Shown: positions 2,987 through 62,443 of the stretch, one piece after another
Layout of the letters: every line of letters begins with the position of its first letter
How positions within the stretch are numbered: the stretch's first letter is position 1
Source of the DNA: a virus
Lineage: Duplodnaviria; Caudoviricetes
Direction: 5' to 3' (one strand)
IMG/VR virus record: IMGVR_UViG_2858943916_000002
Location: 26,186 to 90,185 of that record
Length of the DNA: 64,000 bases
The notes under the pieces: generated by a model
What the model saw: only the letters and a program-made list of their open reading frames with translations
Told to the model about the DNA's origin: nothing
Database searches by the model: none
Program-made: the position numbers and the translations under genes

Positions 2987-4024
2987 GTGCCTAACGCCGA
3001 GCAAAACCAACGAAATGAACAGGCCACATCAAGGCTAATTCGGATCCCAATAATCGTGGGGGGCTTGCTAATACTTGCCTACGGTATTTATTTTGGACTC
3101 ATCCGGAAGCAGGGAACAGGTGGCACCGATATCTGGGGTCAATTTGGCGATTTCTTGGGTGGACTGCTAAATCCGATCGTGGGTACCATCACCATCATCC
3201 TTCTCGTCCGCACTCTCATGGCCCAGTTAAATGCTGTCGACATGCAACGGGAAGAGTTAACACTGCAGCGGGATGAATTAAAGCTCCAACGTGCAGAAAC
3301 CGCGAAATCTACGGAGGCATTAGCGGCGCAAAACAATGCAATCAAGATGCAGAGTTTTGAGCAGACTTTTTTCGCATGGCACGACAGTTATCGAACCTTA
3401 GTGACTAACCTCGCGGGGACTAATGCGCAACTCAGCGGAGCCCAGAGACTTCTGGAGTTATATCAGCCTTTCAAGTCCTCATCGGTCTGCAAGGTCGCCA
3501 AAGGCGCACTAACGGAATACGACTCCATCCCGCCGGCCACCTATCCTCAAGCGATCGAGAGCTATCTGACAGATGGGAATAGATTAGTCGTCGAGCGTTT
3601 CGAGCGGGCAATTACTGCATACGAGACGATCTATAGAAACCACCACTCTGTTCTAGGCCCCATCTATCGAACGCTTTATCGACTGCTAGATTGGATAGAC
3701 AGATCATCGATTTCGGACGAAGAAAAATGGCACTATGTGGCTATAGCGCGATCCCAGTTATCCTGGGGCGAAATGCTATTTCTAGCATTTAACGGACTAA
3801 CTCCCAGAGGGCTAAACTTTGTTCCTCTCATGAACAAGTACGCATTACTCGACAATCTTGAAGACCACACGGAAGACCTGGTCCTGGTAATGCGCAAAGC
3901 CTTTCTGAAAAAGCCGCCAGAGCTTCTTAATCCGCAAATCAATGCGTGGAGGTACGAGGACGGCGCCTTTCACTCGTCCGTCGCCAAATCGAAGTTGGGG
4001 ATATTGACCGCAAGAGATATTTAA
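2987..4024 (+). CDS. Putative abortive-infection protein (putAbiC-type domain with N-terminal TM helices)
   Basis: WGQFGDFLGG TM segment, coiled coil, FEQTFF, YRTLYRLLDWID...ARSQLS...LMNKYALLDNL motifs; AT-rich codon usage. Confidence 0.75.
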   Translation: MPNAEQNQRNEQATSRLIRIPIIVGGLLILAYGIYFGLIRKQGTGGTDIWGQFGDFLGGLLNPIVGTITIILLVRTLMAQLNAVDMQREELTLQRDELKLQRAETAKSTEALAAQNNAIKMQSFEQTFFAWHDSYRTLVTNLAGTNAQLSGAQRLLELYQPFKSSSVCKVAKGALTEYDSIPPATYPQAIESYLTDGNRLVVERFERAITAYETIYRNHHSVLGPIYRTLYRLLDWIDRSSISDEEKWHYVAIARSQLSWGEMLFLAFNGLTPRGLNFVPLMNKYALLDNLEDHTEDLVLVMRKAFLKKPPELLNPQINAWRYEDGAFHSSVAKSKLGILTARDI

Positions 4025-4254
4025 GGCTTATCGAAATATGCCCGACATCTCCGGCATATAGCGAATAGCTCTATGGAATTTTCACATAGCGTGGGCTCAA
4101 ACATTGAGGTTCACATGCAGCTAGTCATGCGGCCCAGAAGGCCGCTCAATCGAATCTGGGCTGACGACTCACTTCGTTAGCCAGCTGCGACCTCGAAATT
4201 GCAACGACTTAGCTGTGACCGGCTTCCTTCTAACCAGGTTCTTCAAGAGGTTGT

Positions 4255-4503
4255 ATGAAACGAACCCATGCATCGAAACGCACCGACATTCAGATCCACG
4301 CCGATCAGGCACATCAGGGTCCGCTCTCCAACATTGCCTACGTCACATATGGGCAAACGGCAATACGCGGGGCGAATCTTTCGGCCAAAACCCTTAAGAG
4401 AATCCAGCCTTGGCTGGATCAAAATGAGATTCCTCACAAGCTCTCGGTCGACGGTGGCCAAACGTGGATCGAGAAGTTCGCCCCAGATTGGCACGTGCAA
4501 TGA
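4255..4503 (+). CDS. Hypothetical protein (cargo)
   Basis: 82-aa ORF with GAGG SD, ends at a hairpin terminator. Confidence 0.55.
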   Translation: MKRTHASKRTDIQIHADQAHQGPLSNIAYVTYGQTAIRGANLSAKTLKRIQPWLDQNEIPHKLSVDGGQTWIEKFAPDWHVQ

Positions 4504-4530
4504 AAAACGCCCCGGTTTTTGGCCGGGGCG
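4503..4530. terminator. Hairpin between convergent cargo genes
   Basis: CGCCCCGG/CCGGGGCG stem preceded by A5 (U-tract on the minus strand). Confidence 0.65.
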
Positions 4531-4582
4531 CTTCGTCAGATCGAACTTGCTACGAGTCTGGGCGAATTTTGCACAACTTGAT

Positions 4583-5230
4583 TCACAGAGTCAAGGGGGG
4601 GGCAAAGACAAAGACGATATAGCCATATACTCCTAGCCCCGCCAACAAGAGCAGAAATAGGGGCACCCGACGCAATAGTGCTCTCCTCCGCTCTACCGTC
4701 TGCAGCCGAGAAAGCGCAATGCGACTGAGGCCGACTTGAGCAATTGCAAGTGCTACGAAAAGCCAAAACAACAATTTCGGCGTGCTCGGGTGGTCGGAGA
4801 CCGCGAGCGCCGCGCAAACCGCCGCTGCGAAGAGGAAAATCGCCCCTTCCCAGTAATAGTCCGAATCCTTGAACATTGAGGCTTCCGCAGTCTTGCTGCG
4901 TAGCACCCCACGACCTGCCGCGAGCGCTGCGGCTGCTGATAGCCAGAACGATGCATAGCTGAAAACGCCTGCACGCTTATCGGCGTTCAACACGTACTCA
5001 TAGTACGGCATTGTGTTCGTCGCCAGGACAGCGCAGATAGGTACGACACTAAGAAAAGCCAGCAGCAGGATCACCGGGACTTCCCGTGAATCAAGGTCGC
5101 CTGAACTACCCGACTTGGCCTTTCCCGGGTTACCCAGAGCTGCGTCTTGCAGATTGACCTTAGGCGCTTGTGGCGTCTGAAGCTGGTGCGCGTTCCGCGA
5201 AGCCTTTCTTCTCCTTTGCCTACGATTCAC
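4583..5230 (-). CDS. Multi-pass membrane protein (cargo)
   Basis: Basic N-terminus then about 5 hydrophobic segments. Confidence 0.65.
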   Translation of the reverse strand: MNRRQRRRKASRNAHQLQTPQAPKVNLQDAALGNPGKAKSGSSGDLDSREVPVILLLAFLSVVPICAVLATNTMPYYEYVLNADKRAGVFSYASFWLSAAAALAAGRGVLRSKTAEASMFKDSDYYWEGAIFLFAAAVCAALAVSDHPSTPKLLFWLFVALAIAQVGLSRIALSRLQTVERRRALLRRVPLFLLLLAGLGVYGYIVFVFAPPLTL

Positions 5231-6373: not shown

Positions 6374-6849
6374 GCCAGGTCACTCACCAAATCCACGGCC
6401 CTGAACCAACTGCCAAGGCCCGCACCGGCCGATGCTCCCGCCGTGTCTCCGCGCGGCTGCGCTGACGCGCATTCGTCGCCAAGCACCCGCAGCATCAACG
6501 CCCCCAATGCCTGCGCGGTCACATTCCCGCTGGCCGCTTCCGCGAAGTCCTTGCGGCTGTGCCGGCTCAGCCAGGGAATCACGCTGTCCGGCACAGGCTG
6601 GCCGGGCAGCGCCGCCTTCAGGCGCCCAGCCAGGATGAACAGGCTTCGACGGTTGTGCATGCGAGCGGTGATGCCTGCCTGCTCCGCGTAGGCCGTGCCG
6701 TGGTGCAGATGGCAGTACCAGTCGGACACGCCGGTCGTGGTGTCAGCGATAGACCCGGGCAGCATGCAGCCCCTGACGCAGCACATGCCGTAGCCCTGGA
6801 CCGGATGCTGGTGGCGGGTCACCGCCGCGGATGCCTCGGCGTAGCTCAT
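6370..6849 (-). CDS. Cys/His-rich phage protein (homolog of 50917..51393)
   Basis: MSYAEASAAV...GYGMC...GC.LPG...DWYC.LH shared with the prophage 2 copy. Confidence 0.75.
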   Translation of the reverse strand: MSYAEASAAVTRHQHPVQGYGMCCVRGCMLPGSIADTTTGVSDWYCHLHHGTAYAEQAGITARMHNRRSLFILAGRLKAALPGQPVPDSVIPWLSRHSRKDFAEAASGNVTAQALGALMLRVLGDECASAQPRGDTAGASAGAGLGSWFRAVDLVSDLA

Positions 6850-7835
6850 GCGGTTCGCTCCTGCTCATCACGCCGGCGACGCAGCTCGGCGAAGATCCGA
6901 TCGCGGTAGCTGGCGTAGGTCTCGCCGCCCCGAGCAAACATGCCCAGTTCACGCCCCACGCGGTCCGTCGCCGCATCGGACTTCCACCACTCGCCCCAGT
7001 CCTGGCCGGTCTCGGCACGAGGCCCCACCGCGTTCGGCACGACGGGAGCGCGAGCTGTTCGCACGCGGTTTCGCCAGGTCGCCAGCCAGTCGAGCTTGCA
7101 GCCCTTCGCTCCTGGCACGGCGGTCCAGTAGTCGCGGAATTCGTCGGCCAGTACGCGCACCTGCTCGGCGGACAGGTCGGGCCGCAGGTCGAGCGCCGCC
7201 TTGCCCCAGGACATCGGCAGAACCCAGTCTGCCGGCAGGCGAGATCCACGCTTCGTGGTGCTGACAGTGTTACGGCTTTTAGAGGTATTACCTACGAAGA
7301 TAGGTATTACCTCTTTCTTATGTTTTATTTCTGTAGGGAAAACTGGTACTGCTTCGGGTTTACCCAGGTGTCCCAAATTTGGTACTGCTTCGGGGTAAGC
7401 GGTACCAGTTTTGGGACTGCTTCCCTCAAAATCATCGGAAGCTATCCCAATTTCGGTACCGCTTAGCTGTCCCAAATCTGGTACTGCTTGGGCTTCGGAA
7501 GCTGTCCCGTTTTCGGTACCGCTTTGCTGATCCGAAGCTGTACCAGAATTGGTACCGCTTGCTGGTTCGCACAGCCGGAACACGACCACCGACTTAGTGG
7601 CCCCTGCCCGCTCGCCGCTATCGACCAGGAAACCTGCGTCGATCAGCCGGCGCAGATTGGCGAGCACCGTCTTGCGGTCTTGCCCAGTCTGCTGCGCGAT
7701 CAGGGTGGTGGATGCAAATGCGCTCCACGGCGCTTGCTTGCCGTGCGCATAATGCGCCAGTGCCACCAGAATGAACTTGGCTGGGGAATGGCAAACAGGC
7801 TGGGCCAATGCCCAAGCGACAGCTTGAGCACTCAT
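6846..7835 (-). CDS. Phage replication initiator (N-terminal HTH, O-like)
   Basis: AKFILVALAHYA...AQQTGQDRKTV HTH; internal iteron array; C-terminal DWLATWRN motif. Confidence 0.85.
   Translation of the reverse strand: MSAQAVAWALAQPVCHSPAKFILVALAHYAHGKQAPWSAFASTTLIAQQTGQDRKTVLANLRRLIDAGFLVDSGERAGATKSVVVFRLCEPASGTNSGTASDQQSGTENGTASEAQAVPDLGQLSGTEIGIASDDFEGSSPKTGTAYPEAVPNLGHLGKPEAVPVFPTEIKHKKEVIPIFVGNTSKSRNTVSTTKRGSRLPADWVLPMSWGKAALDLRPDLSAEQVRVLADEFRDYWTAVPGAKGCKLDWLATWRNRVRTARAPVVPNAVGPRAETGQDWGEWWKSDAATDRVGRELGMFARGGETYASYRDRIFAELRRRRDEQERTA
7270..7560. repeat. Replication origin: 7 iterons plus adjacent AT-rich stretch
   Basis: GG(T/G)AC(T/C)GCTT at 7345, 7381, 7413, 7455, 7480, 7515, 7551, most preceded by TGTCCCAAATTT-like 12-mers; AT-rich 7270-7335. 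Confidence 0.75.
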
Positions 7836-8155
7836 CGTCGTCCCCCAGGGGCCACAACCCTACCCTGCTCTACTACCGGTGCAACTCGTCCAATTCGTCC
7901 AGTGGCATTGCATTCACCACACATTAGCTTTTGAGGTTCACCAGAATACAACCATGCCAGGAATGGTTTGCGCACCAACTCATGGAATCGGTCGCGCGCC
8001 ATTTGATCCAGGTCGAGCTCGGCGCGCGACTCCACACCGGATACGCGACGAATGAACGCAGCGGCCTCATCGGCGCAGTGAACGCCAGCAAAAACCCAGA
8101 ACTTCGGATTTCGACTCAGCCGGACGGCCAGCCAGCAAATCGAATTGGCCTTCAT
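7832..8155 (-). CDS. Conserved phage hypothetical protein
   Basis: ATGA-coupled to the initiator; ESRAELD...FHELVRKPF motif. Confidence 0.75.
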   Translation of the reverse strand: MKANSICWLAVRLSRNPKFWVFAGVHCADEAAAFIRRVSGVESRAELDLDQMARDRFHELVRKPFLAWLYSGEPQKLMCGECNATGRIGRVAPVVEQGRVVAPGGRR

Positions 8156-11100
8156 TCGATATGCTCGAGTAAATCCCCTGCGGCAACACCCCGCTCCTCC
8201 GGCCCCTTACGGCATACACTGTTGGCTCTCACTCTGAACAGACGGGAGACGACCGACCATGAAGAAGTTAATAGTTGCGCTGAGGTATGAGCCATCCGTT
8301 GCGTTGCTCTTCGGGACGGCTGGCGTTGAATACCGCACAGATGGCGTTGTGGCTCCCGATGGGACGCAACTACCGGTGTGCCTATTACTCGTGGCATGCT
8401 CATCGGTTTCAGCCACGGACCATGGCCTTGTACGACTGGAAATTCGCCCAAGAGAGGGCGACCGAGCGCTTCCGTTCTCAGCGGTCTCAGTCCCAGCAGC
8501 ACTCCTTGCCTGGAGCATTGATTCAGGAAACGAGCGAGACTTCCCCGTGGGATTCCTACGTACCCAGGTCTAAGGCCGCGCATTGGCGTTGGGTGCAAGA
8601 GAACTTGATGCCGTAACAGATACCCGCTACTCTTGATAGTTACTTTTCTGTTACATCCAAGCGGAGTTGAAAGTGAATCAAGAGCAACACGAACTACTTG
8701 TCCAAGCTCATCAGCAAATGCTGAACCTTGCTCAAATAAACGAGGTGCAAATGAAGTTGAGCATGTCGATGCGAGAAGATCTGATGGCGGCGCAAATTGC
8801 CCTGCGCGCAGTGTGCGAAGTTCTTTCTCCCGAGGGAAAACGGCTTGCGGCTGAGCACATCCGGGAATTCGGGGAAGAGTTTCGGGATCGATTTGCAAAG
8901 GACCACCCAGACCGGGCGATTGACGGGTTCTCAATTGCAATAAATGCCTATATAGAAGGCTTGGGAGCCGCCCCCATCGCCGAGGGTGTGAAGTAGGACG
9001 CACGACAAAAGCGATTCGCCCATTCGCGCCTGCCAATCGCTGTTCAACTAGGAGATCGATTTGGATAACCCCGTCTATCGCTCCGCGATGGAAGGCCTGC
9101 AGGAAATGTATGGGCCTTTGTCTGGATGGCAAAGCAACGTAGGCGTTCGCACCAACACTTCGCCGAAGGGAAAAATCACCCTTTATCACGATCGAATCGC
9201 TTCCGGAAATAAGGCCGAGCTCGCGGTCGATCCTGAATCGATGGCCCGAGCGACCGGGCAAGGCGAAGACCAAGCCGAAGCTTTCATAAAACAACTGTCG
9301 CAGTTGACGGGGCGCGCCACCCTGACCCATGCAAGGTACAAATGGCCGCGGATCGGCTTGGCTGTGGACTCCGACGTGGAAGCAGTTTTGGAAGCTCTGC
9401 AAACTCTGTTCAATGAGGTGGCCTCGGACGCCCTCTCTTCGGATCCGTCGCCCAGCTACTGGTGGGTGAGCCACAACCAAATGCATCGCCGAGAGCTCAG
9501 CGGCGGCTACATCTGGTGTCCCCAGACCAAGAAAGGCGGCGGGGCGAGAGAAACCTGGACGAACGTATCTCGCGTGCGACGGGGAGACATCGTCTTTTCC
9601 TACGCAAAAACGAAGCTCCAAGCTGTTGGCGTTGCGCTTGGCGATGCACAGGAGGCAAGTGCTCCCAGCGAGGCGTATCACTCGTGGAACGATGCTGGAT
9701 GGCGCGTGACAATCCAGTGGGAATCCCTTGGATCCCCGTTGTCTCCCAAAGAGCATTGGGACGAAATCGGCGACCTTTTCCCTGCTGTCCATTCGCCACT
9801 GCGCGAGGATGGCGGCGGAAACATGACATACCTGGCGGCGTTGAGCGTGCCTCTGGGTTTGAAGCTGCTGGACCTGATCGGCATGACGGACGACGACGCC
9901 CTCGCGAACGTTGATCGGGAGATGGTCAAGGTGTCTGGCGTCGATAAGACCGAGGTTGAGCGGGTCTACCAAGCGCGTATAGGCCAAGGCACATATAGAA
10001 AGAACGTCATGTCCGTCGAACGCTACTGCCGCGTAACGGGTGTCAGCAATGTGGATCTGCTCATCGCGAGCCACATCAGGCCGTGGCGTCAAAGCTCGAA
10101 CCAACAACGCCTCGACGGCAACAATGGCCTGCTTCTCTCGCCTCACGTCGATAAGTTGTTCGACTCGGCCTGGATATCGTTTTCCGATCAGGGAGAGATC
10201 CTGGTTGCCAGCGGAGAGGTCAGAGAGGTGCTCATCGCCTGGGGCATTGACCCAGACATGAACGTAGGGCAATTCAATGAGGACCAAGAAAAATACTTGG
10301 CCTACCATCGAGACGTCCTTTTCTCGGAAAAGGCTAAGCAACCAGAAGAATGAGCGATCGGCCTCAATCGCAATCAGAAGAATCCACAAAGCACCTTGGA
10401 TTGAACCTGGCTGAGTTCGTACGTAATCCCACCAACCTTCACTAGACTCCCTGCAGGGAGCTTCCACATACGCAGCGATTAATCGGGAGATTTGGTCAGA
10501 ATGGCCCTCTACTTTTTGAGCTACGACTTGCGCAAATCCCGCAACTACCAACCGCTGTACGATGAACTGGCAAAGCTCGATGCCACTCGGGTCCTGGAAT
10601 CCCTTTGGGCGTTCAAACTCGCCGACACCAATTGCACATACGTTCGGGACTATTTCCGTCAATTTATCGATGCAGACGATGGGTTGATCGTGACCCAAGC
10701 TGTCGACTGGGCAACTTGGAACACGGATAAAGCCCCACCCAACACATAAGTCACGCCGTGCAGGAGGTAGCACCGCGCCCTCCTCCTGCCGGTCTAACGC
10801 CCGCGCCGCCTGTTCTAGATCAAGATGCGCATACTCAACTGGCGCCAATTTGACTTGGTCGGACACGTCGGGACGAATCCGCAACCTAGAATTGCCAACC
10901 AATTTGGCGGCCAGTTCCAGCCATATATGATCGGGATTCCCCAACCCCAACCATATGTGGAAGGAACTGACCATGGACCCGCAAGTAAGAGGACAATTGG
11001 CGACAATCACCTTCGCGCTTGGCAAACTCATCCGCTCGACCAGCCGTACCGCCGAACAGAGGCAAGACGAGGTGGAGCGGCTGCGGAGCTGGGCGGACCA

Positions 11101-11211
11101 CCAGCTCAAAGAGGCATATCGCGCGGGCGCAGATTCTGCCGGCCTCACGCCGGAGCAACAAGCCTTCCTGTCAGGAGTCCACGACACCGTAGACCAGTTG
11201 GCATGGCTCAT
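8152..11211 (-). CDS. 1019-codon antisense bridge ORF across five plus-strand cargo genes
   Basis: Stop-free in the ORF track; ATGA overlaps at both ends (11208-11211, 8152-8155); product has no recognisable motifs. Confidence 0.35.
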   Translation of the reverse strand: MSHANWSTVSWTPDRKACCSGVRPAESAPARYASLSWWSAQLRSRSTSSCLCSAVRLVERMSLPSAKVIVANCPLTCGSMVSSFHIWLGLGNPDHIWLELAAKLVGNSRLRIRPDVSDQVKLAPVEYAHLDLEQAARALDRQEEGAVLPPARRDLCVGWGFIRVPSCPVDSLGHDQPIVCIDKLTEIVPNVCAIGVGEFERPKGFQDPSGIELCQFIVQRLVVAGFAQVVAQKVEGHSDQISRLIAAYVEAPCRESSEGWWDYVRTQPGSIQGALWILLIAIEADRSFFWLLSLFREKDVSMVGQVFFLVLIELPYVHVWVNAPGDEHLSDLSAGNQDLSLIGKRYPGRVEQLIDVRREKQAIVAVEALLVRALTPRPDVARDEQIHIADTRYAAVAFDGHDVLSICALAYTRLVDPLNLGLIDARHLDHLPINVREGVVVRHADQVQQLQTQRHAQRRQVCHVSAAILAQWRMDSREKVADFVPMLFGRQRGSKGFPLDCHAPSSIVPRVIRLAGSTCLLCIAKRNANSLELRFCVGKDDVSPSHARYVRPGFSRPAAFLGLGTPDVAAAELSAMHLVVAHPPVAGRRIRREGVRGHLIEQSLQSFQNCFHVGVHSQADPRPFVPCMGQGGAPRQLRQLFYESFGLVFALPGRSGHRFRIDRELGLISGSDSIVIKGDFSLRRSVGANAYVALPSRQRPIHFLQAFHRGAIDGVIQIDLLVEQRLAGANGRIAFVVRPTSHPRRWGRLPSLLYRHLLQLRTRQSPGLGGPLQIDPETLPRIPGCAQPQAVFPREKELRTLRAGQFAPPSDLLASTCSTSFAPRLFEQGSAFADELGQVVRVALDSLSTPLGCNRKVTIKSSGYLLRHQVLLHPTPMRGLRPGYVGIPRGSLARFLNQCSRQGVLLGLRPLRTEALGRPLLGEFPVVQGHGPWLKPMSMPRVIGTPVVASHREPQRHLCGIQRQPSRRATQRMAHTSAQLLTSSWSVVSRLFRVRANSVCRKGPEERGVAAGDLLEHIE
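8259..8573 (+). CDS. Hypothetical protein (cargo)
   Basis: 104-aa ORF with GGGAG upstream. Confidence 0.6.
   Translation: MKKLIVALRYEPSVALLFGTAGVEYRTDGVVAPDGTQLPVCLLLVACSSVSATDHGLVRLEIRPREGDRALPFSAVSVPAALLAWSIDSGNERDFPVGFLRTQV
8667..8996 (+). CDS. Hypothetical helical/coiled-coil protein (cargo)
   Basis: GGAG SD (GTG 8673 is an alternative start); Q/E-rich helical pattern. Confidence 0.6.
   Translation: MKVNQEQHELLVQAHQQMLNLAQINEVQMKLSMSMREDLMAAQIALRAVCEVLSPEGKRLAAEHIREFGEEFRDRFAKDHPDRAIDGFSIAINAYIEGLGAAPIAEGVK
9061..10353 (+). CDS. EVE/PUA-like plus HNH endonuclease (modification-dependent restriction, VcaM4I-like) with an extra N-terminal domain
   Basis: YWWVS..Q....E..GGYIW.P and GDIVFS (EVE-like); R.GQG.YR, CRVTG, LIASHIRPW, RLDG.NGLLL.PH.D.LFD (HNH); TTG start with AGGAG. 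Confidence 0.82.
   Translation: MDNPVYRSAMEGLQEMYGPLSGWQSNVGVRTNTSPKGKITLYHDRIASGNKAELAVDPESMARATGQGEDQAEAFIKQLSQLTGRATLTHARYKWPRIGLAVDSDVEAVLEALQTLFNEVASDALSSDPSPSYWWVSHNQMHRRELSGGYIWCPQTKKGGGARETWTNVSRVRRGDIVFSYAKTKLQAVGVALGDAQEASAPSEAYHSWNDAGWRVTIQWESLGSPLSPKEHWDEIGDLFPAVHSPLREDGGGNMTYLAALSVPLGLKLLDLIGMTDDDALANVDREMVKVSGVDKTEVERVYQARIGQGTYRKNVMSVERYCRVTGVSNVDLLIASHIRPWRQSSNQQRLDGNNGLLLSPHVDKLFDSAWISFSDQGEILVASGEVREVLIAWGIDPDMNVGQFNEDQEKYLAYHRDVLFSEKAKQPEE
10501..10749 (+). CDS. Stand-alone Cas2/VapD-like small protein
   Basis: N-terminal strand YFLSYDL with an acidic D, Y..L..EL helix, ES.W, D.DD.L; 82 aa; no array nearby. Confidence 0.6.
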   Translation: MALYFLSYDLRKSRNYQPLYDELAKLDATRVLESLWAFKLADTNCTYVRDYFRQFIDADDGLIVTQAVDWATWNTDKAPPNT

Positions 11212-11293
11212 CGACTCCCCCGTTTACCCTCAGGGCCAAACGAGCGGTACATCCGCTCCGCGCAACGACGATCCCAGTCCTCCTGATCTCTGA
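10973..11293 (+). CDS. Hypothetical helical protein (cargo)
   Basis: SD GGAAGGA before ATG 10973 (MDPQVRG...). Confidence 0.65.
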   Translation: MDPQVRGQLATITFALGKLIRSTSRTAEQRQDEVERLRSWADHQLKEAYRAGADSAGLTPEQQAFLSGVHDTVDQLAWLIDSPVYPQGQTSGTSAPRNDDPSPPDL

Positions 11294-11363
11294 CGTCGCG
11301 GGTGTATCGGCGCAGCGCGGGCGTAATTAACCAGAGCAAGGCGCGGGCATACAGTTCACGCAT
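11208..11363 (-). CDS. 51-aa phage protein MRELYARALLWLITPALRR...
   Basis: Translated manually; 8-nt overlap with the upstream stop and ATGA overlap with the 1019-codon ORF. Confidence 0.6.
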   Translation of the reverse strand: MRELYARALLWLITPALRRYTRDVRDQEDWDRRCAERMYRSFGPEGKRGSR

Positions 11364-11712
11364 GGCAGCCCCCACTCGCGTCGGTATCTGGCGACTGCTC
11401 TTTGAACTTGCGCTCCCAGCCGATCACGAGGTAGCCAAACGGTCGGCTCCACTCCGTCACACCGGCTGGCGGGACCGCGCCAGGAATGATCTCGGCCAAC
11501 TCATATGTGAACCGCCCTGCGACATCGCCAACGGGTCGAAAGGTGGCATAGCCAATGTGGTTGCCGGCGCCATCACGTAGGCGCATGCCCAAGAGCGTCG
11601 GAGCTTCAGGGCGCATTTTTGGCCCCTCAAGCACCAGTCGAACGCCACCGCGGCCCGCAGGCTCGAGCCAGGCGTTGATATCGAGGTCAGCGTAGGTTCG
11701 GAATTCACGCAT
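11356..11712 (-). CDS. Hypothetical phage protein (MREFRTY...)
   Basis: Strong SD AAGGAG before ATG 11712. Confidence 0.65.
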   Translation of the reverse strand: MREFRTYADLDINAWLEPAGRGGVRLVLEGPKMRPEAPTLLGMRLRDGAGNHIGYATFRPVGDVAGRFTYELAEIIPGAVPPAGVTEWSRPFGYLVIGWERKFKEQSPDTDASGGCHA

Positions 11713-11968
11713 TGGAGGCTCCTTGCTGCGAATGGGCGCCCTGCCCCTTCCCCTTAAACTGGCTGCTCTCACACAAACCATCCTTGGGAAAGGAGCTGGG
11801 CATGGAAAAAACGGCGCGGCAGCAGTTCGACGACCTGCTGAAGGAATCGCACTTCTTCAACGATTCGATCAACACGGCAAAGCGAGCCGCTGGATACGCG
11901 GCCGGGCAAATCCTCGGCGCCCTCATCGAAGGGGATGTCACCATGTACGAAAAGCTCAAGCGACTCAT
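11705..11968 (-). CDS. Antisense bridge ORF B across cargo 11802..12143
   Basis: ATGA start overlap at 11965-11968 and ATGCGTGA end overlap at 11705-11712. Confidence 0.4.
   Translation of the reverse strand: MSRLSFSYMVTSPSMRAPRICPAAYPAARFAVLIESLKKCDSFSRSSNCCRAVFSMPSSFPKDGLCESSQFKGKGQGAHSQQGASNA
11733..11806 (+). promoter_or_regulatory. 74-bp cargo promoter/RBS element shared with prophage 2 (54521..54594)
   Basis: 67/74 identical by manual alignment; TAAACT -10-like hexamer, AAAGG(A/G)G SD and ATG. Confidence 0.65.
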
Positions 11969-12143: not shown

Positions 12144-12243
12144 TCGCTACCATCACCAGCGCACGTTGCATGGCGCGCCTGATCTGCGGCGGCCCGAAAG
12201 CCTTGGCGCCCTTCTCGCGCCCATATCCAGCCCGATTACGCAT
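11965..12243 (-). CDS. Post-cro ORF A / antisense bridge
   Basis: ATGCGTAA overlap with the cro stop; stop overlaps the ORF B start. Confidence 0.45.
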   Translation of the reverse strand: MRNRAGYGREKGAKAFGPPQIRRAMQRALVMVAISRRLGSPATARPNAAASAAAARLDAQPNRVPAEFHGAPAELHCPGSGLGPSLAGSLRP

Positions 12244-12523
12244 GGCTTGGCTCCTGCGGCGCGGCCGCGGCCAGCTCCGGCCAGAGACGCCCGTAGTCAT
12301 TGGGCCGCAAGTCCTGGCGGCGGCATTCGCCATCGGTGATCAATTCAATGTCCGCAGCGATAAGGCCGGCGAGCTTATAGCCGTAAGCGACCTGGCGGAG
12401 GTATCCCACCGACGTGCCACGTTGGCGACAGCGTGCCTGCGCTTCCAGCTTGGGGGTCTTCCTCAACCACTGGAGCAAAGGCTCCACTGGCACTCTTGTT
12501 CGGGATAAGGGTTGTTGACTCAT
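12236..12523 (-). CDS. cro: Cro-like transcriptional regulator (YdaS-type)
   Basis: GTSVGYLRQVAYG HTH, ...DLRP.D...WPEL tail, divergent from the repressor. Confidence 0.85.
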   Translation of the reverse strand: MSQQPLSRTRVPVEPLLQWLRKTPKLEAQARCRQRGTSVGYLRQVAYGYKLAGLIAADIELITDGECRRQDLRPNDYGRLWPELAAAAPQEPSHA

Positions 12524-16996: not shown

Positions 16997-17785
16997 ATGG
17001 CCAAGAAATCCAAAGACGTGTACGGCGCGGACGGCCAGAGCAATCTGCTCAACTTCGACCCCGCCAAGCTGACTCTCGTCACAGACGAATCCAGCCCCCT
17101 ATATGACAAGCGCGTGCATCTGCCCGTGAACGAGGCGCTGGCGCGGAACATCGACTATCAGGGAGTGCTGGAGCCCGTGGCGGTTTCCAAGAACCCCGAG
17201 ACGGGCGACACCGAGGTCGTGTTCGGCCGGCAGCGCGTGAAGGCCGCCGTGCTCGCCAACCAGTGGCGTCGAGAACGCGGTGTGCCGGAACGACTGATTC
17301 CCGGCATCGTCTACACGGGCAAGCGCGAGAACGCCCTGGACGCGATCGTCAGCGAGAACGAAGCCCGCACCGCTGATACGCCTCTGGGCCGCGCCGAGAA
17401 GATGCGCCAACACCTTGCCCTGGGCAAAGGTGAAGACCAGATTGCGGTCATCTACAACTGCACGATCGCCACGGTCCGCGACACGCTGGCGCTGCTGGAT
17501 AGCCCCAAGGCCGTGCAGAACGCCGTCGAGGCAGGTCTGATCACCCTGACCCATGCCAAGGCACTGGTGAAGCTCAAACCTGATGAACAGCGCGCCAAGG
17601 TGGCCGAGTTGGTCGCGGCCGGCAAGAACGCCACGCCCCACCAGCGAAGCCGCAAGCAGGCCGCAGTCATGGGCGAGCGCCCCCGCGTAAGGTCCCGCAA
17701 GCAGATCCAGGCCGCTTTGGAAACCGCGCAAGGCGACTATGCCGCAGCCCTGCGCTGGGTGCTGGGAGAGGAAGACGGCGCATGA
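16997..17785 (+). CDS. ParB-like nuclease/HTH protein
   Basis: GVLEPV.V, VVFGRQRVKA, SENEAR, HTH and LTHAKAL motifs. Confidence 0.8.
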   Translation: MAKKSKDVYGADGQSNLLNFDPAKLTLVTDESSPLYDKRVHLPVNEALARNIDYQGVLEPVAVSKNPETGDTEVVFGRQRVKAAVLANQWRRERGVPERLIPGIVYTGKRENALDAIVSENEARTADTPLGRAEKMRQHLALGKGEDQIAVIYNCTIATVRDTLALLDSPKAVQNAVEAGLITLTHAKALVKLKPDEQRAKVAELVAAGKNATPHQRSRKQAAVMGERPRVRSRKQIQAALETAQGDYAAALRWVLGEEDGA

Positions 17786-17853
17786 ATGCTTCCAAGGCGA
17801 CGAGCCCGAACAGCGAAATCCAATCCCGACAGGGCAATGGGAGCGAAGAATGA
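17782..17853 (+). CDS. 23-aa linker ORF
   Basis: ATGA overlap with the ParB-like stop and with the bridge start. Confidence 0.35.
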   Translation: MNASKATSPNSEIQSRQGNGSEE

Positions 17854-18515
17854 TAGCTAGAAAGCTAGTCGAGATTTCCGCTCAACACTCGGGCCATCCA
17901 GTCCTCGCACTGCCGTTTCAGCGCCTCCACATCGGCAATGCCGGACAGCAACACATCAGAGGAGGCGCCGTTGACAATCATCATCGCCAACCCCGACTGT
18001 GCCTGACGCGCAGCCCTAACCGCAGCCGATCGTTCGGCCTTCTGCGCCATACCTTCGAAATTCGCGCACATGGATGCGAGGAGCGACACGATCGATCCCC
18101 CAAATACTCCATCGGCTCTGTCTTGCAAGGCGATCAAGCGCGTGTGCAAGAGCGAAAACTCCGAACTCGAAGGCCTGTCTCCGGCCTCCCATTGCTTGAG
18201 AAGCGCCTGCAACTGACCGCAAATCTGGTAGCACGTGTGAGCCACGGCCCAGTTTCGCTTCACAACAGCAGCCTTGTCGTCCTTTCGTCGCTCGAAGTTC
18301 TGCCAAAGAGGAACGGCTACGGCAAACATCGCCGCCCCCACAGTGCCGAACGCCGTCATCAAATCCCACCACTTAGCTTCGGCCGACATGTCAACTTTCG
18401 TGGCGAGAGCGAACCCCAAAGCCAAGCCAATGAGGGTAAGCACTGCGCCGGCAATCAAATAAAGCGCCTTCATGCTCGTCTCCATATTTGGCCGCAATCG
18501 TATCCCAGCGGCTAA
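17850..18515 (+). CDS. Antisense bridge ORF across cargo 17865..18497
   Basis: ATGA start; its TAA overlaps the AAGGAG SD of the next ORF. Confidence 0.4.
   Translation: MIARKLVEISAQHSGHPVLALPFQRLHIGNAGQQHIRGGAVDNHHRQPRLCLTRSPNRSRSFGLLRHTFEIRAHGCEERHDRSPKYSIGSVLQGDQARVQERKLRTRRPVSGLPLLEKRLQLTANLVARVSHGPVSLHNSSLVVLSSLEVLPKRNGYGKHRRPHSAERRHQIPPLSFGRHVNFRGESEPQSQANEGKHCAGNQIKRLHARLHIWPQSYPSG
17865..18497 (-). CDS. Membrane-anchored hypothetical protein (cargo)
   Basis: Two N-terminal TM segments (WWDLMTAFGTVGAA...W) then a helical domain. Confidence 0.7.
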   Translation of the reverse strand: MRPNMETSMKALYLIAGAVLTLIGLALGFALATKVDMSAEAKWWDLMTAFGTVGAAMFAVAVPLWQNFERRKDDKAAVVKRNWAVAHTCYQICGQLQALLKQWEAGDRPSSSEFSLLHTRLIALQDRADGVFGGSIVSLLASMCANFEGMAQKAERSAAVRAARQAQSGLAMMIVNGASSDVLLSGIADVEALKRQCEDWMARVLSGNLD

Positions 18516-53953: not shown

Positions 53954-54265
53954 CTATGCCGCCCCGCACGTGCCCTGGCTCAGCCTGGCGCGGCAGCAGT
54001 TGGCGCCGATGGCATTGCCACGGGCCAGATAGTCCATGTACCACTGCTCGACGATCGACAGGCCGAACACCTCCAGGATGGCGTCCAACTGCTCCAGCTT
54101 GATGCCGGCGTTGTTGTTCAGTACCTGGGTGATCGACGATTCATCTTTCCAGCCAGCCGCCTGCATGACGTCGGCGCGCTTGGCCTTGGACATGGTGGTC
54201 AAGGCCTTGCGGATCAGGGTTTCGCCCTGAGGCTGTGATGCGGAGGGAATCTGAGGGGCGTTCAT
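53954..54265 (-). CDS. cII: CII-like transcriptional activator
   Basis: V..A.GW.D.S.I..V..N..GIKLE.L...L..FGL..V; position after cro. Confidence 0.7.
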   Translation of the reverse strand: MNAPQIPSASQPQGETLIRKALTTMSKAKRADVMQAAGWKDESSITQVLNNNAGIKLEQLDAILEVFGLSIVEQWYMDYLARGNAIGANCCRARLSQGTCGAA

Positions 54266-54915
54266 GAGGCTTCAACGCTGTTCAAGTGAAAGGGAATGCC
54301 GCTGAAAGCGCGGCTCGGCACACTGGCGGCATGAAAAATCTGACCGAAACCGAAAAGCTGCTCATCACCGCCCAGGACATGGCCCGGCGCACCTTCGTCG
54401 ACCCCAGCGAGGCCGCGGTGCTGGCCATCTTTGAAGAGCTGCGCGCCGAGCGCGACCGCATGGCATGGGCCACCGACGACCGCGCCGGCGCGACGGTGCA
54501 CTGAGCCATGTCCATCGAATTGGGCGCCCTGCCCCTTCCCCTTAAACTGGCGGCTCTCACACTCACCGTTCTTGGGAAAGGGGATGGGCATGGACTGGAA
54601 GTTCGCCTTAGGCACGCTGTTCGCCGCGCTGGGCGGCCTGTTCGCGCTGATGAATCGGCATCCGCGCGTGTACAAGGCAATCAGCAGTGTGCTGACCGAC
54701 ATCATTGGGTTCTTGGGCACTGCGTCGATGGGCCTGTACCTGGGCATACAACTCGCGATGGATCTCATCCGAGACTCAGCCGCAAAGCAGATGCCGGATA
54801 TCACCGCGGCGTCGGTCGGGCAGTTGATGGGGAGCGCCGAAAGAGCCCTCACCGTCTTCGGCTGGGCGACAGCACTCATCTTTGCGTTGTTCGTCGGGCA
54901 TCTGGTGTTCGGCAT
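54262..54915 (-). CDS. Antisense bridge ORF across cargo 54590..54964 and 54331..54504
   Basis: AGGAGG SD overlapping the upstream TAG, ATG 54915; ATGA overlap with cII. Confidence 0.45.
   Translation of the reverse strand: MPNTRCPTNNAKMSAVAQPKTVRALSALPINCPTDAAVISGICFAAESRMRSIASCMPRYRPIDAVPKNPMMSVSTLLIALYTRGCRFISANRPPSAANSVPKANFQSMPIPFPKNGECESRQFKGKGQGAQFDGHGSVHRRAGAVVGGPCHAVALGAQLFKDGQHRGLAGVDEGAPGHVLGGDEQLFGFGQIFHAASVPSRAFSGIPFHLNSVEAS
54331..54504 (+). CDS. 57-aa helical protein antisense to the PR operon
   Basis: MKNLTETEKLL..AQD.ARR.F.DPSEAAV...F.EL.AERDR.AW. Confidence 0.6.
   Translation: MKNLTETEKLLITAQDMARRTFVDPSEAAVLAIFEELRAERDRMAWATDDRAGATVH
54521..54594 (+). promoter_or_regulatory. 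74-bp cargo promoter/RBS element shared with prophage 1
   Basis: 67/74 identical to 11733..11806. Confidence 0.65.
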
Positions 54916-54964
54916 CCTGGCCCTCCTAGCGGTCAACGAAGAGGACAAGAAGGCCAAAGGCTGA
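54590..54964 (+). CDS. Three-TM membrane protein (cargo)
   Basis: Hydrophobic segments; starts at the ATG of the shared element. Confidence 0.7.
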   Translation: MDWKFALGTLFAALGGLFALMNRHPRVYKAISSVLTDIIGFLGTASMGLYLGIQLAMDLIRDSAAKQMPDITAASVGQLMGSAERALTVFGWATALIFALFVGHLVFGILALLAVNEEDKKAKG

Positions 54965-55084
54965 CGCCAGGCCGACATGGAAATGCCAGCGCGACCACCA
55001 CGTGGCGCGCGCGGTCGCCCAGCGGGCATACCGGACAAGCCATGCGTGACGAGCAGCGCGCCGAGCAAGCAATTCGACGAGCAT
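54926..55084 (-). CDS. 52-aa post-cro ORF (Arg/Trp-rich, hydrophobic end)
   Basis: TGATG overlap with the cro stop; MLVELLARRAARHAWL... Confidence 0.5.
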   Translation of the reverse strand: MLVELLARRAARHAWLVRYARWATARATWWSRWHFHVGLASAFGLLVLFVDR

Positions 55085-59293: not shown

Positions 59294-59493
59294 GCGAAAT
59301 GATCGAAGCATACAAGGCGCTCAAGGACTACAGGAAGGCGGTGCGCGCCAAGTATGGGGTGAAGTGCCCAGCCTGCGCCATCGCTCGGCCCAAAGCCCCT
59401 GCCAGCATCCTGATTCCGCAGCAGCGCTGCCGCGTCGACGGCTACCGCGACCCGCGCCCTGAACTCACTGACGAGCAATGGGGAAGCGCATGA
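59290..59493 (+). CDS. Small Cys-containing phage protein
   Basis: CPAC...R.....L.PQ..C..DGY.DPR. Confidence 0.7.
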   Translation: MSEMIEAYKALKDYRKAVRAKYGVKCPACAIARPKAPASILIPQQRCRVDGYRDPRPELTDEQWGSA

Positions 59494-59657
59494 TCCGCCG
59501 CCTCCTGCGCGCCCACGGCGACCTGCTGCTCGGCGCCGCAGCCCTCTGCGCCGGCGTCTTCATGGCCTGCGTGCTTGGCCCGACGCTCGACGCCCAATCC
59601 ACCCTCACCGCCTGCGAAGGCTGCGGCAAGACCGCCGTGGCCGCGCGCCAACCCTGA
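59490..59657 (+). CDS. Small single-TM phage protein (homolog of 14304..14501)
   Basis: MIRRLL...TM...GPTLDA. Confidence 0.62.
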   Translation: MIRRLLRAHGDLLLGAAALCAGVFMACVLGPTLDAQSTLTACEGCGKTAVAARQP

Positions 59658-59669
59658 GAGACCACCACC

Positions 59670-60830
59670 ATGACCGAAGTTGTAGACGAAGTGCTCGACG
59701 CACCCGCCGCGATCATCGAATTCAACGCCGTGCAGAAGGGCCTGGCCGAACTGCGCCAGGAGCTGGCCGGCGTGCAGTTCGACGTCACCACCACGGCCGG
59801 CGACAAGGCCGCCCGCGCCGCGCGCGCCCGCTGCGTCAGCATCCGCACGTCGGCCGATGCCGCCTATGAAGGCTGGAACAAGCCGATGCTGGCCAAGCAG
59901 CGCGAGATGCGCGCCATCCTGGCCAAGATCAAGGACGAGGTAAAGGCAGTTGAAGAGCCGATCGACGCGCAGATCAAGGCCGAAGAGGCGCGCAAGGCCG
60001 AAATCAAGGCGGCGAAGGAAGCGGCCGAACTGGCGCGCCAGCAGGCCATCCAGTCGCGGATCAACGCCATCAGCCAGTACCCGGTGCAGGCCGCGGGCAA
60101 GAGCGCCGCCGATATCGCCGCGCTGTTGGCCGCTGTTGCCGAGCTGCCCATCACCACCGAGCTGTACGAACATCGCGCCGGCGAGGCCATGGCCCTGCAG
60201 GCGGACACCGTCGCCAAGCTGGAACAAATGCACGGCGCCGCGCTCGCGCAGGAACAGGAAGCCGCGCGCCTGGCCGCCGAGCGGGCGGAGCTGGAGCGTC
60301 AGCGCCTGGAGCAAGAAGCGGCCGCTGCCGCCGCGCGCAAGGCCGAGGACGAGCGCCTGGCCAAGGAGCGCGCCGAGTTGGAAGAGCAGCAGCGCCGCCT
60401 GCAGGCCGAGCGCGACGCCGAGAACGCCCGCCAAGAAGCCGCGCGCGCCGAGCAGGCTCGCAAGGATGCCGAAGCCGCGGCGGCGCTCAAGCGCCAGCAG
60501 GATGAGGCCGCCGCCGCGCTGCGCGCCCAGCAGGAAGAAATCGACCGCCAGCGCCGCGAGTTCGAAGAGCAGCAGGCCGCCGCGCGCCGCGCCGAGCAGG
60601 AACGCGCCGAAGCCGAGGCCCGCGCCCAGCAGGAGAAGGAAGCCGCCGCGCGCGCCGAGCGCCAGGCAGAACTGGACCGCCTGCACCGCGCAGCGCCGGA
60701 GATGCTGGATGCCCTGATGCAGTGGCGCGCCGCTGAACGCGACGGCGACGAGGAAGAACTGAAGCACGCCCGCGTCGCGCGCGACGAGGCTATCGCTGCC
60801 GCTACGCAGCCCGAAGTTACCCCCGCCTAA
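59670..60830 (+). CDS. Long coiled-coil phage protein
   Basis: I.EFN....LAEL N-terminus, I..IE.PID.QIK, E/A/R/Q-rich tail. Confidence 0.8.
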   Translation: MTEVVDEVLDAPAAIIEFNAVQKGLAELRQELAGVQFDVTTTAGDKAARAARARCVSIRTSADAAYEGWNKPMLAKQREMRAILAKIKDEVKAVEEPIDAQIKAEEARKAEIKAAKEAAELARQQAIQSRINAISQYPVQAAGKSAADIAALLAAVAELPITTELYEHRAGEAMALQADTVAKLEQMHGAALAQEQEAARLAAERAELERQRLEQEAAAAAARKAEDERLAKERAELEEQQRRLQAERDAENARQEAARAEQARKDAEAAAALKRQQDEAAAALRAQQEEIDRQRREFEEQQAAARRAEQERAEAEARAQQEKEAAARAERQAELDRLHRAAPEMLDALMQWRAAERDGDEEELKHARVARDEAIAAATQPEVTPA

Positions 60831-60872
60831 CCCATCCACTACGCCCGGCCGAGTCTCGGGCAGGAGACCACC

Positions 60873-61775
60873 ATGTCTGACACCACCACGATCGACCAAC
60901 AACCCACCACCGCCCTGGACCTGCCGGCGGCGAACACCAGCACCAGCGGCTTGGTGCTGCACGCCGACAACATGGAGGCCATGATGCGCGCGGCCGAGAT
61001 GATGGCGGCGGGCCGCGCCACCGTGCCCAAACACCTGCAGGGCAACCCGTCCGACTGCATGGCCGTGATCATGCAGGCGATGCAGTGGAACATGAACCCG
61101 TTTGTGGTGGCCCAGAAAACCCACCTGGTGAACGGCACGCTTGGCTACGAGGCGCAACTGGTCAACGCGGTGGTGCAGTCGTCCGGCGCCATCGCCGGCC
61201 GGTTCCACTACGAATACAAGGGCGACGGCAACACCCTGGAATGTCGCGTGGGCGCCGTAATCGCCGGCGAGGCGGATATCACCTGGAGCGAATGGCTCAA
61301 GATTTCCGACGTCACCACGAAGAATTCGCCGCTGTGGAAGACCAATCCGCGCCAGCAGATGGGTTACCTGCAGGTGAAGAACTGGACCCGCGCTTACACC
61401 CCTGGCGCGCTGCTGGGCGTGTACACGTCCGACGAGCTGATCGATGCGCAACCGCGCGAGCGCGATATCACGCCGAAGACCGCCGCCGAATTCGCTCAGG
61501 CCGCGAAGCCGCAGCCGGCGGTGCAGGTCGACCGCGACCAGATCATCCGCGACCTGGAAATGATCGCGCGCAGCAATGATCCCGCCGAGAAGCGCACCGC
61601 AGACCTGACCGCGGCCTGGATGGCGCTGGGCAAAGATGGCCGCGCCGCCGTTGGCAAGAACGAGATCACCCGCATCGAGGCCCTGGCCAAAGCCGAGGAC
61701 GCGGCGCCCGCGCAGCCCAGCCCCCAGGATAAGCCGGGCGCCGGCGACAACCCCTTCGAGGGTGTGCAGGAATGA
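60873..61775 (+). CDS. recT: RecT-family single-strand annealing protein
   Basis: VPKHL.G.PSDC.AV..QA.QW.MNPF.VAQKT..VNG.LGYEAQLVNAV, W...P.QQ..Y...K.W.R. Confidence 0.85.
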   Translation: MSDTTTIDQQPTTALDLPAANTSTSGLVLHADNMEAMMRAAEMMAAGRATVPKHLQGNPSDCMAVIMQAMQWNMNPFVVAQKTHLVNGTLGYEAQLVNAVVQSSGAIAGRFHYEYKGDGNTLECRVGAVIAGEADITWSEWLKISDVTTKNSPLWKTNPRQQMGYLQVKNWTRAYTPGALLGVYTSDELIDAQPRERDITPKTAAEFAQAAKPQPAVQVDRDQIIRDLEMIARSNDPAEKRTADLTAAWMALGKDGRAAVGKNEITRIEALAKAEDAAPAQPSPQDKPGAGDNPFEGVQE

Positions 61776-62443
61776 ACGCGCCCGCCGAACAACGCACCGA
61801 GGAATGGCGGCAAGAACGCGCCGGCAAGATCACCGCCAGCAACTTCGCCGCGGCCATCGCGATCACGCCCGCCGAGGGCGTCTACAAGAGCGGCCCGCGC
61901 AAGGGACAGTTGAAGGTGGCCGAACCCACGCTGGAACGCACAAAGCTGATGCGCACGCTGGCATTCGAGCGGCTGGCCGGCATCCCGCGCCGCGAGATCG
62001 GTGCGAAGTCCCTGTCGTGGGGCCGCGACCTGGAAGACGCCGCCAAGGAGGCCTACATGGTCGAGAAAGGCGCGCTGGTCGAGGACAGCGGCTTCGTGTT
62101 GCACCCGACGCACGACTTCATCGGCGCCAGCCCGGACGGCCTGATCGGCGCTGACGGCGGCATCGAGATGAAGTGTCCCCACGACGAGCAGGTCCATATC
62201 CAGACCTGGCTGGAAGGCATGCCAGAAGGCCACATCCCGCAGGTGCAGGGAAACATGCTCGTGACCGGCCGCCAGTGGTGGGACTTCATCAGCTACGACC
62301 CGCGCATGGCCGAGCCCTGGCGCCTGTACGTGCAGCGCATCCCGCGCGACGAAGCCTACATCAAGACCTTGCTGACCGCCCTGCTGCAGTTCGAAGCTGA
62401 GCTGCGCGCGATGGTCGACACCCTGCGGCGCAAAGCCGCCTGA
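61772..62443 (+). CDS. Lambda-exonuclease/YqaJ-family nuclease
   Basis: QRT.EW...R.G.ITAS, WG...E, GASPDGL, EMKCP, Q.Q....VTGR..WDF.SYDPR. Confidence 0.9.
   Translation: MNAPAEQRTEEWRQERAGKITASNFAAAIAITPAEGVYKSGPRKGQLKVAEPTLERTKLMRTLAFERLAGIPRREIGAKSLSWGRDLEDAAKEAYMVEKGALVEDSGFVLHPTHDFIGASPDGLIGADGGIEMKCPHDEQVHIQTWLEGMPEGHIPQVQGNMLVTGRQWWDFISYDPRMAEPWRLYVQRIPRDEAYIKTLLTALLQFEAELRAMVDTLRRKAA

Follow-up and report, generated by a model that had tools for sequence, protein, structure and literature searches.

The closest analogue of the arrangement described here is found in the ambigrammatic narnaviruses (Culex narnavirus 1 and relatives; PMC6884476, PMC8316113, PMC8155312, PMC7010960), in which avoidance of CUA, UUA and UCA in the forward gene leaves a complementary stop-free frame of about 3 kb, whose product is unconstrained as a protein and for which ribosome association has been proposed as the purpose. 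Long antisense frames are also described as shadow open reading frames (ORFs) of GC-rich genomes (PMC3454372; discussed in PMC8850804), and as the olg1 and olg2 genes of Pseudomonas aeruginosa, which are reported to be translated and under purifying selection (PMC8850804). In addition, reviews of coupled operons (PMC12360218, and PMC13323073, which deals with runaway transcription and purine bias) describe how stop/start overlaps, of which ATGA is one, couple the translation of neighboring genes, and how untranslated nascent RNA serves as a substrate for Rho.

The stretch analyzed here (the window) comprises 64,000 nucleotides of a Caudoviricetes virus, bases 26186-90185 of the 90,185-bp contig IMGVR_UViG_2858943916_000002, and holds a lambdoid-type prophage whose early-right operon, on the minus strand, runs from a cro-like gene through small genes to O-like replication genes. 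Between the small genes and the replication genes there is a putative swap-in slot that holds g1, g2, a gene for an EVE-HNH type nuclease, a gene for a Cas2-like protein and g5, all facing the opposite way. On the operon strand, these five backward genes are crossed by a single stop-free ORF of 1019 codons, from ATG to TGA (8152..11211, minus strand), hereafter the bridge ORF, which covers 96% of the 3.2-kb cargo slot.

As in the narnaviruses, the complementary frame extends over about 3 kb, is free of CTA, TTA and TCA on the forward side of its codon-aligned genes, and encodes an unconstrained product. Unlike them, it belongs to a DNA prophage and not to a single-gene RNA genome, spans five genes in three phases plus their spacers with half of its length non-aligned, and is start/stop-coupled into a polycistronic operon, in which the likely benefit would be expression of the downstream genes. 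Like GC-rich shadow ORFs, the bridge is antisense, over 517 of its 1019 codons, to genes devoid of TTA, CTA and TCA; in contrast to them, it runs on through genes in other phases and through spacers, where the region is richest in AT, and ends at exact coupling junctions, and homologues and controls matched in G+C content at third codon positions (GC3) are not open. With olg1 and olg2 it shares great length in antisense and a GC-rich proteobacterial setting, but its sequence is unconstrained and changes with the cargo. Finally, its ATGA overlaps are those of known coupled operons, although there the coupled partners are real genes, whereas here a meaningless frame is apparently maintained only to carry coupling across backward genes. 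Full-text searches turned up, within the literature covered, no account of bridge frames that span backward genes of phages. The comparisons below make it very probable that an open, coupled frame on the operon strand has been selected.

Frame, junctions and openness of the bridge ORF

An earlier note, made by a model from the letters of the window, had singled out the bridge as the longest ORF of the window, in an AT-rich setting. Both points hold, as its stop-to-stop span (8152..11223, 1023 codons) exceeds every other stop-free frame in the six frames of the whole contig, and the GC content of the region is 0.559, compared to 0.632 for the contig. It is also the largest bridge that we have seen. 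Frame arithmetic reproduced the proposed division into about 517 aligned and 500 non-aligned codons: the nuclease gene (start 9061; 431 aligned codons) and the Cas2-like gene (start 10492; 86 aligned codons) begin at 1 mod 3, while g1 (8259) and g2 (8667) lie at 0 mod 3 and g5 at 2 mod 3, these genes in other phases and the spacers accounting for 503 codons that are not codon-aligned.

Both ends of the bridge were read directly in the sequence. At the 3' end, its TGA (8154-8152) overlaps the ATG (8155-8153) of a backbone gene (7832..8155, minus strand; 107 amino acids, phrog_19763 at 4e-12). At the 5' end, its ATG (11211-11209) overlaps the TGA (11210-11208) of a short ORF (11208..11375, minus strand; 55 codons from a GTG at 11375 or 51 from an ATG at 11363), which we term the relay ORF and which is antisense to the 3' end of g5; the ATG at 11363 overlaps in turn the stop codon of the last upstream backbone gene, 11356..11781 (ATGCGTGA). 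The bridge thus starts on an upstream stop and stops on a downstream start, with ATGA at 11211/11208 and 8155/8152. The claim that both ends form ATGA overlaps with neighboring phage genes therefore stands for the overlaps and for the 3' partner, but the 5' partner is the relay ORF, whose conservation is limited to carriers of the same g5 allele (related locus L003). The GGGGGAG proposed as a Shine-Dalgarno (SD) sequence for the bridge is present at 11221-11215. From 12532 to 4583, the minus strand is tiled without gaps by 13 overlapping or abutting ORFs. Promoter and terminator scans gave background levels, with no terminator between g5 and 11356..11781.

Exact junctions recur elsewhere among the related loci (designated by L-numbers), which include several prophages with a common backbone that differ in the slot. 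In L005, the ATG of the upstream bridge overlaps the TGA of gene 7322..7915, and the TGA of the downstream bridge overlaps the ATG of a putative methylase-like gene (4133..4987; a label from reading of its sequence); these flanking genes are unrelated to those of the window, yet the ATGA junctions are exact. In L048, from a different lambdoid phage, a bridge with one internal stop crosses a g1 homologue lying backwards between cro and cII, and ends by ATGA on cII.

Over 8152-11211, the three minus-strand frames contain 1 (the terminal one of the bridge), 34 and 42 stops. Within the 503 non-aligned codons, no stop occurs in the bridge frame vs 19 and 24 in the other two, about one per 21-26 codons; the earlier note had roughly expected one in about 30. 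Avoidance of a DNA motif was considered as the cause and rejected, as the other two phases contain these trinucleotides 34 and 42 times.

In the aligned genes, the codons whose antisense is a stop are absent: TTA, CTA and TCA account for none of the 76 Leu and Ser codons of the nuclease gene and none of the 14 of the Cas2-like gene. The depletion suspected in the nuclease gene relative to its homologues is real, although 18% of its other four-fold degenerate codons end in A, and CAA is used more than CAG. A general avoidance of rare codons by the cargo was likewise rejected, as g1 uses TTA, CTA or TCA for 10 of 22 Leu and Ser codons in its own, non-aligned frame. Resampling of the nuclease gene gave P = 0.0037-0.013 for an open antisense frame, and the aligned part as a whole was stop-free with P = 0.0013-0.0066, varying with the reference codon usage.

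The synonymous shuffling of the plus-strand genes that the earlier note had recommended was also applied to the non-aligned genes. Permutation within each gene returned probabilities of no antisense stop of 0.17-0.18 for g1, 0.00098 for g2 and 0.11 for g5; g2 gave the strongest signal, with no stop observed against a mean of 4.5, and g1 alone gave no significant signal (P 0.17-0.8 in three homologues). The five spacers are jointly stop-free with P = 2e-3 under a Markov model and 1e-4 by permutation. By per-segment resampling, the probability that the non-aligned half alone is stop-free was about 4e-8.

Relatives, controls and conservation of the product

Metagenomic and viral contigs supplied 19 distant homologues of the nuclease, 33-47% identical to it, with GC3 of 0.48-0.65 and similar use of A at third positions. 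They contain 2-19 TTA, CTA or TCA codons, those with a full-length ORF containing 5-19. Around the middle of these genes, stops leave the aligned antisense frame open over only 6-167 codons. Throughout the prophage clade, to which the window, L001-L004, L006 and L005 (66% identical) belong, the count is zero. As far as these sequences go, the open antisense frame is confined to the prophage clade and is no property of the HNH family. The refutation offered by the earlier note, homologues outside prophages with the same open frame, was thus not borne out, since 5-19 antisense stops were found there.

The pattern extends to unrelated backward cargo. TTA, CTA and TCA are absent from the Leu and Ser codons of a 220-aa gene (0/40) and a 163-aa gene (0/34) in L004, a 248-aa gene in L005 (0/40), two membrane-like genes in L041 (0/42 and 0/38), and genes in L045 (0/33) and L042 (0/36). 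Pooling ten backward cargo genes from the window and these five loci gave 0 of 391, while in the other codon boxes 20% of codons end in A. Flanking genes in operon sense use them at 3/40, 6/54 and 4/38 of Leu and Ser codons. No backward gene lacking a long frame was found in the slot among the related loci examined.

The number of ORFs needed to tile the operon strand of the slot gives a further comparison. Two suffice here for 3.2 kb (0.62 per kb), and 2-3 for 1.2-3.4 kb in L002-L005, L041, L042 and L045, with most relatives at 0.9-1.8 per kb; the short slots of L047 and L048 reach about 3 per kb (2 ORFs for 0.67 kb in L048). As controls, 14 ORFs are needed for 1.8 kb (7.8 per kb) across a backward AbiC-like gene outside the early operon (2987..4024, plus strand), 4-13 ORFs per approximately 1-1.7 kb (3.6-10 per kb) across the distant HNH homologues, and 1.3-3.9 ORFs per kb in the antisense of higher-GC backbone blocks. 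Compared to these backbone blocks, the cargo is lowest in GC and yet has the fewest stops in operon sense.

The product of the bridge is not what has been conserved. Between the window and L005, the nuclease proteins are 66.9% identical and the antisense readings 36.7%, and 122 of the 133 codon changes silent in the nuclease gene alter the bridge residue. The window and L001 differ by seven substitutions in the spacer 10354-10491, each of which hits a bridge codon at its first base and changes the residue. Bridges over different cargo are unrelated in sequence, some of them split. No sign of purifying selection on an overlapping product was obtained. The translation has no match in Pfam or PADLOC, and its composition (Leu 11%, Arg 10%, Lys 2%, Asn 1.7%) is like that of an out-of-frame reading, in agreement with the earlier impression of antisense translation. 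Since the bridge product is not conserved (37% vs 67% for the nuclease), openness rather than a protein would be the selected trait, as the earlier note had supposed and as the homologues and the codon depletion also support. As judged from these comparisons, what is maintained is freedom from stops, together with the junctions, and not the protein.

Proposed role of the open frame

Because the slot precedes the replication genes, the operon transcript must cross 3.2 kb of antisense cargo. As untranslated RNA feeds Rho and overlaps couple translation, we propose that the bridge lets ribosomes transit the cargo and so avoids Rho polarity on the replication genes, a reading to which we give a probability of roughly 0.6. 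The bridge would be the operon-strand reading of the insert, kept stop-free through avoidance of TTA, CTA and TCA in the aligned genes and through the choice of codons and context in the non-aligned genes and spacers. Its translation would start by ATGA on the relay ORF, itself coupled to the last upstream backbone gene, and would end by ATGA on the next backbone gene. After induction, as the operon RNA polymerase crosses the cargo, continuous translation of the bridge would keep ribosomes behind it, preventing Rho-dependent polarity, and would hand them on to the start of the replication genes. We infer both the translation of the bridge and its anti-polarity benefit from sequence comparison.

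A broader rule for temperate phages, that a backward gene inside an early operon is rapidly made ambigrammatic from upstream stop to downstream start by shaping of its synonymous sites, phase and spacers, seems slightly better than an even bet. Were it true, the codon usage of the cargo would be partly dictated by the opposite strand; stop-free bridges would reveal obligatory read-through transcription from sequence alone; and the phage would be vulnerable, since a single stop silent in the cargo should cripple its replication through Rho. If the anti-polarity reading itself is right, long "junk" ORFs opposite prophage accessory genes would be functional elements of a non-coding-like kind, neither proteins nor artefacts. 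The acceptance of backward defence cargo in the middle of an essential operon, without splitting it, would be explained, and the codon usage and phase of horizontally acquired genes would be under a constraint from the opposite strand. Single silent mutations would then suffice to test how transcription is coupled to translation, and how Rho polarity acts, in the early operons of phages.

Several observations weigh against the anti-polarity reading or the selection behind it. The SD-like sequence ends only 3 nt from the bridge ATG, the bridges of L004 and L002 stop 11 nt inside the next gene, and in L041 gaps of 50-125 nt separate both bridge ends from their neighbors. With a GC skew within about 0.1, the RNA in operon sense shows no marked richness in C or shortage of G, and no strong Rho-utilization (rut) signal is evident; moreover, an N-type or Q-type antiterminator, if acting on the operon, would make anti-polarity unnecessary. 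RNA-library contigs from the locus are unstranded and fit cargo-sense expression. L047, the weakest case, needs 4 ORFs for 1.26 kb, and the ten pooled cargo genes came to notice because long frames cover them. In addition, with the mid-GC3 genes of the contig as reference, the openness of the aligned half is a modest excess (P about 0.004-0.03).

It is also conceivable, although we regard it as rather unlikely, that openness was selected for another reason: ribosomes might cover the RNA against RNases or against pairing with cargo mRNA (RNase III), or the frame might serve only to deliver ribosomes for reinitiation. This alternative draws equally on all that speaks for selected openness and coupling, and the missing C-rich, rut-like skew of the operon-sense RNA is in its favor, as is the narnavirus reverse frame, which is proposed to act via ribosome association and not through its product (PMC8155312, PMC8316113). 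It is not distinguished from anti-polarity by anything observed here: the backward AbiC-like gene, which has no bridge and is not part of the early operon, fits both.

That the bridge is an ordinary shadow ORF, its aligned frame opened by GC-rich codon bias and the rest by luck in a very large scan, is disfavored and in our judgement improbable. Such frames do occur on this contig: outside the cargo block, 30 of the 91 genes of at least 100 codons lack TTA, CTA and TCA, and a 795-codon antisense ORF (59442-61829, minus strand) over two plus-strand genes in the same frame, with GC3 of 0.85-0.88, looks like one. Mid-GC3 genes of the contig use the three codons for only 4.6% of Leu and Ser (21% in low-GC3 genes), and in the relatives the neighbors of the HNH gene are often in its frame. 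Openness from such codon usage at matched GC3 was not found here, the result being borderline with the mid-GC3 reference. A shadow ORF would be codon-aligned throughout, whereas half of the bridge is not, and it is in this half that chance openness is least credible. At equal GC3, the frame is interrupted 5-19 times in distant HNH homologues, the stops are fewest where GC is lowest, exact ATGA junctions occur in L005 and L048 between unrelated flanks, and the pattern repeats over unrelated cargo.

Finally, a functional overlapping protein of 1019 residues in the manner of olg1 and olg2, for which the length, the GGGGGAG, the coupled start and the purifying selection reported for long translated antisense genes of a related GC-rich genus (PMC8850804) could be adduced, is highly improbable given the missing family match, the out-of-frame composition, the drop in identity where the nuclease is retained, the wholly different or split products in relatives with other cargo, and the residue-changing spacer substitutions.

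Cargo genes, operon backbone and other observations

The evidence for real genes on the plus strand is as follows. The earlier note had described a five-gene defence block; the bridge is antisense to five genes, but a defence character was found only for the nuclease, a relative of PDB 6YEX. The nuclease gene (9061..10353, plus strand) matches Pfam HNH_2 (3e-11) and PADLOC HNH (2e-23), and its residues 132-422 match 6YEX ("HNH endonuclease") at 1.7e-66. The latter we take to be the EVE-HNH enzyme VcaM4I. The product is thus a predicted EVE-HNH modification-dependent nuclease, in which, as in the solved relative, the reader domain stands ahead of the HNH domain, and it carries an extra N-terminal domain of about 130 amino acids: the first 125-130 residues (9061-9450) are missing from the PDB relative. 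In L002, L003 and L006 the nuclease has another, short N-terminus that resembles the start of the separate 220-aa gene of L004, a sign that domains may have been shuffled at the gene's 5' end. In L005 (6001-7292), the HNH homologue is split in two frames near residue 63-68, by a frameshift or a sequencing error; in either piece the aligned antisense frame is open, and there is an overlap of 73 nt between the two bridge ORFs.

The Cas2-like small protein (10492..10749, plus strand; likely start ATG 10501) matches phrog_1090 at 1.7e-15, with Pfam Cas2 at 2e-4 (21.9 bits vs a gathering cut-off of 23.8) and PADLOC Cas2_II at 1e-3. Product g1 (8259..8573, plus strand; 104 aa) has full-length homologues at 52-54% identity. 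Both g2 (8667..8996, plus strand; 109 aa, helical-looking) and g5 look protein-like, and only near-identical relatives were found for them. A 120-nt leader (10856..10975, plus strand), with a promoter-like site at 10904-10931 and an SD sequence, is 96-97% conserved in L002 (7725-7844), L004 (8098-8217), L006 (4573-4692) and L045 (7644-7840). As the alignment of the five loci shows this leader ending exactly at an ATG at 10973, g5, previously placed at 10955, is taken to start there (10973..11293, plus strand; 106 aa). It is a swappable allele: at least three unrelated small genes stand behind the leader in different phages, which looks like a swap-in slot with a common start signal.

The converse reading, with the bridge as the real gene and the plus-strand genes as its shadows, was ruled out by the matches to HNH_2, PADLOC HNH, 6YEX and phrog_1090 and by the g1 homologues; substitutions in the nuclease gene fall at third codon positions, which also counts against it. 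Gene-calling programs will probably report the 1019-codon frame, either in place of the real nuclease gene or in addition to it. The seven substitutions in the spacer 10354-10491 all lie at positions equal to 0 mod 3, with a periodicity of three. Hidden plus-strand coding in this spacer, which would account for it, was rejected, as the frame in question is interrupted by stops at 10402 and 10480; the stop at 10480 is a Tyr codon in L001, and only a 31-codon minus-strand ORF shares the phase. The spacer also contains a palindrome, CTCCCTGCAGGGAG, at 10447-10460.

RNA-library contigs from two metatranscriptomic studies (X15 and X16) have their starts at 8243 and 8247, which is 12-16 nt ahead of the g1 ATG. 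Their depth from g1 into the early part of the nuclease gene (about 9590) exceeds that over the flanking phage genes. They may include DNA, and at most hint at expression of the cargo from a start near 8245.

The operon itself starts with a cro/repressor-like helix-turn-helix (HTH) gene (12236..12523, minus strand; phrog_35), opposite a plus-strand HTH_3 gene and followed by several small coupled genes and then by the slot of backward genes. The backbone gene immediately upstream of the slot (11356..11781, minus strand) encodes a 141-aa product with no family, 91-98% identical in L002-L004, L006 and L040-L045. Beyond the backbone gene on which the bridge ends lies a lambda O-like replication initiator (6846..7835, minus strand; phrog_6643, phrog_1032, phrog_678), also ATGA-coupled. 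A megablast search against a phage collection returned no match.

Shorter bridge frames were found at two other places in the window. One (17691..18515, plus strand; 274 codons from stop to stop) lies over the backward gene 17865..18497, in which TTA, CTA and TCA are used for 0 of 40 Leu and Ser codons; the other (54262..55083, minus strand; 273 codons) crosses the cro-cII gap of a second prophage. The AbiC-like abortive-infection gene at 2987-4024 (Pfam putAbiC, 1.3e-15), located between the early operon and the packaging genes, uses the three codons at 22 of 65 and has no bridge frame, serving as an internal negative control. Lastly, an HNH_3 endonuclease gene in operon sense occupies the slot beside backward cargo in L041 (7927-8571), L042 (7827-8471) and L047 (5179-5823).

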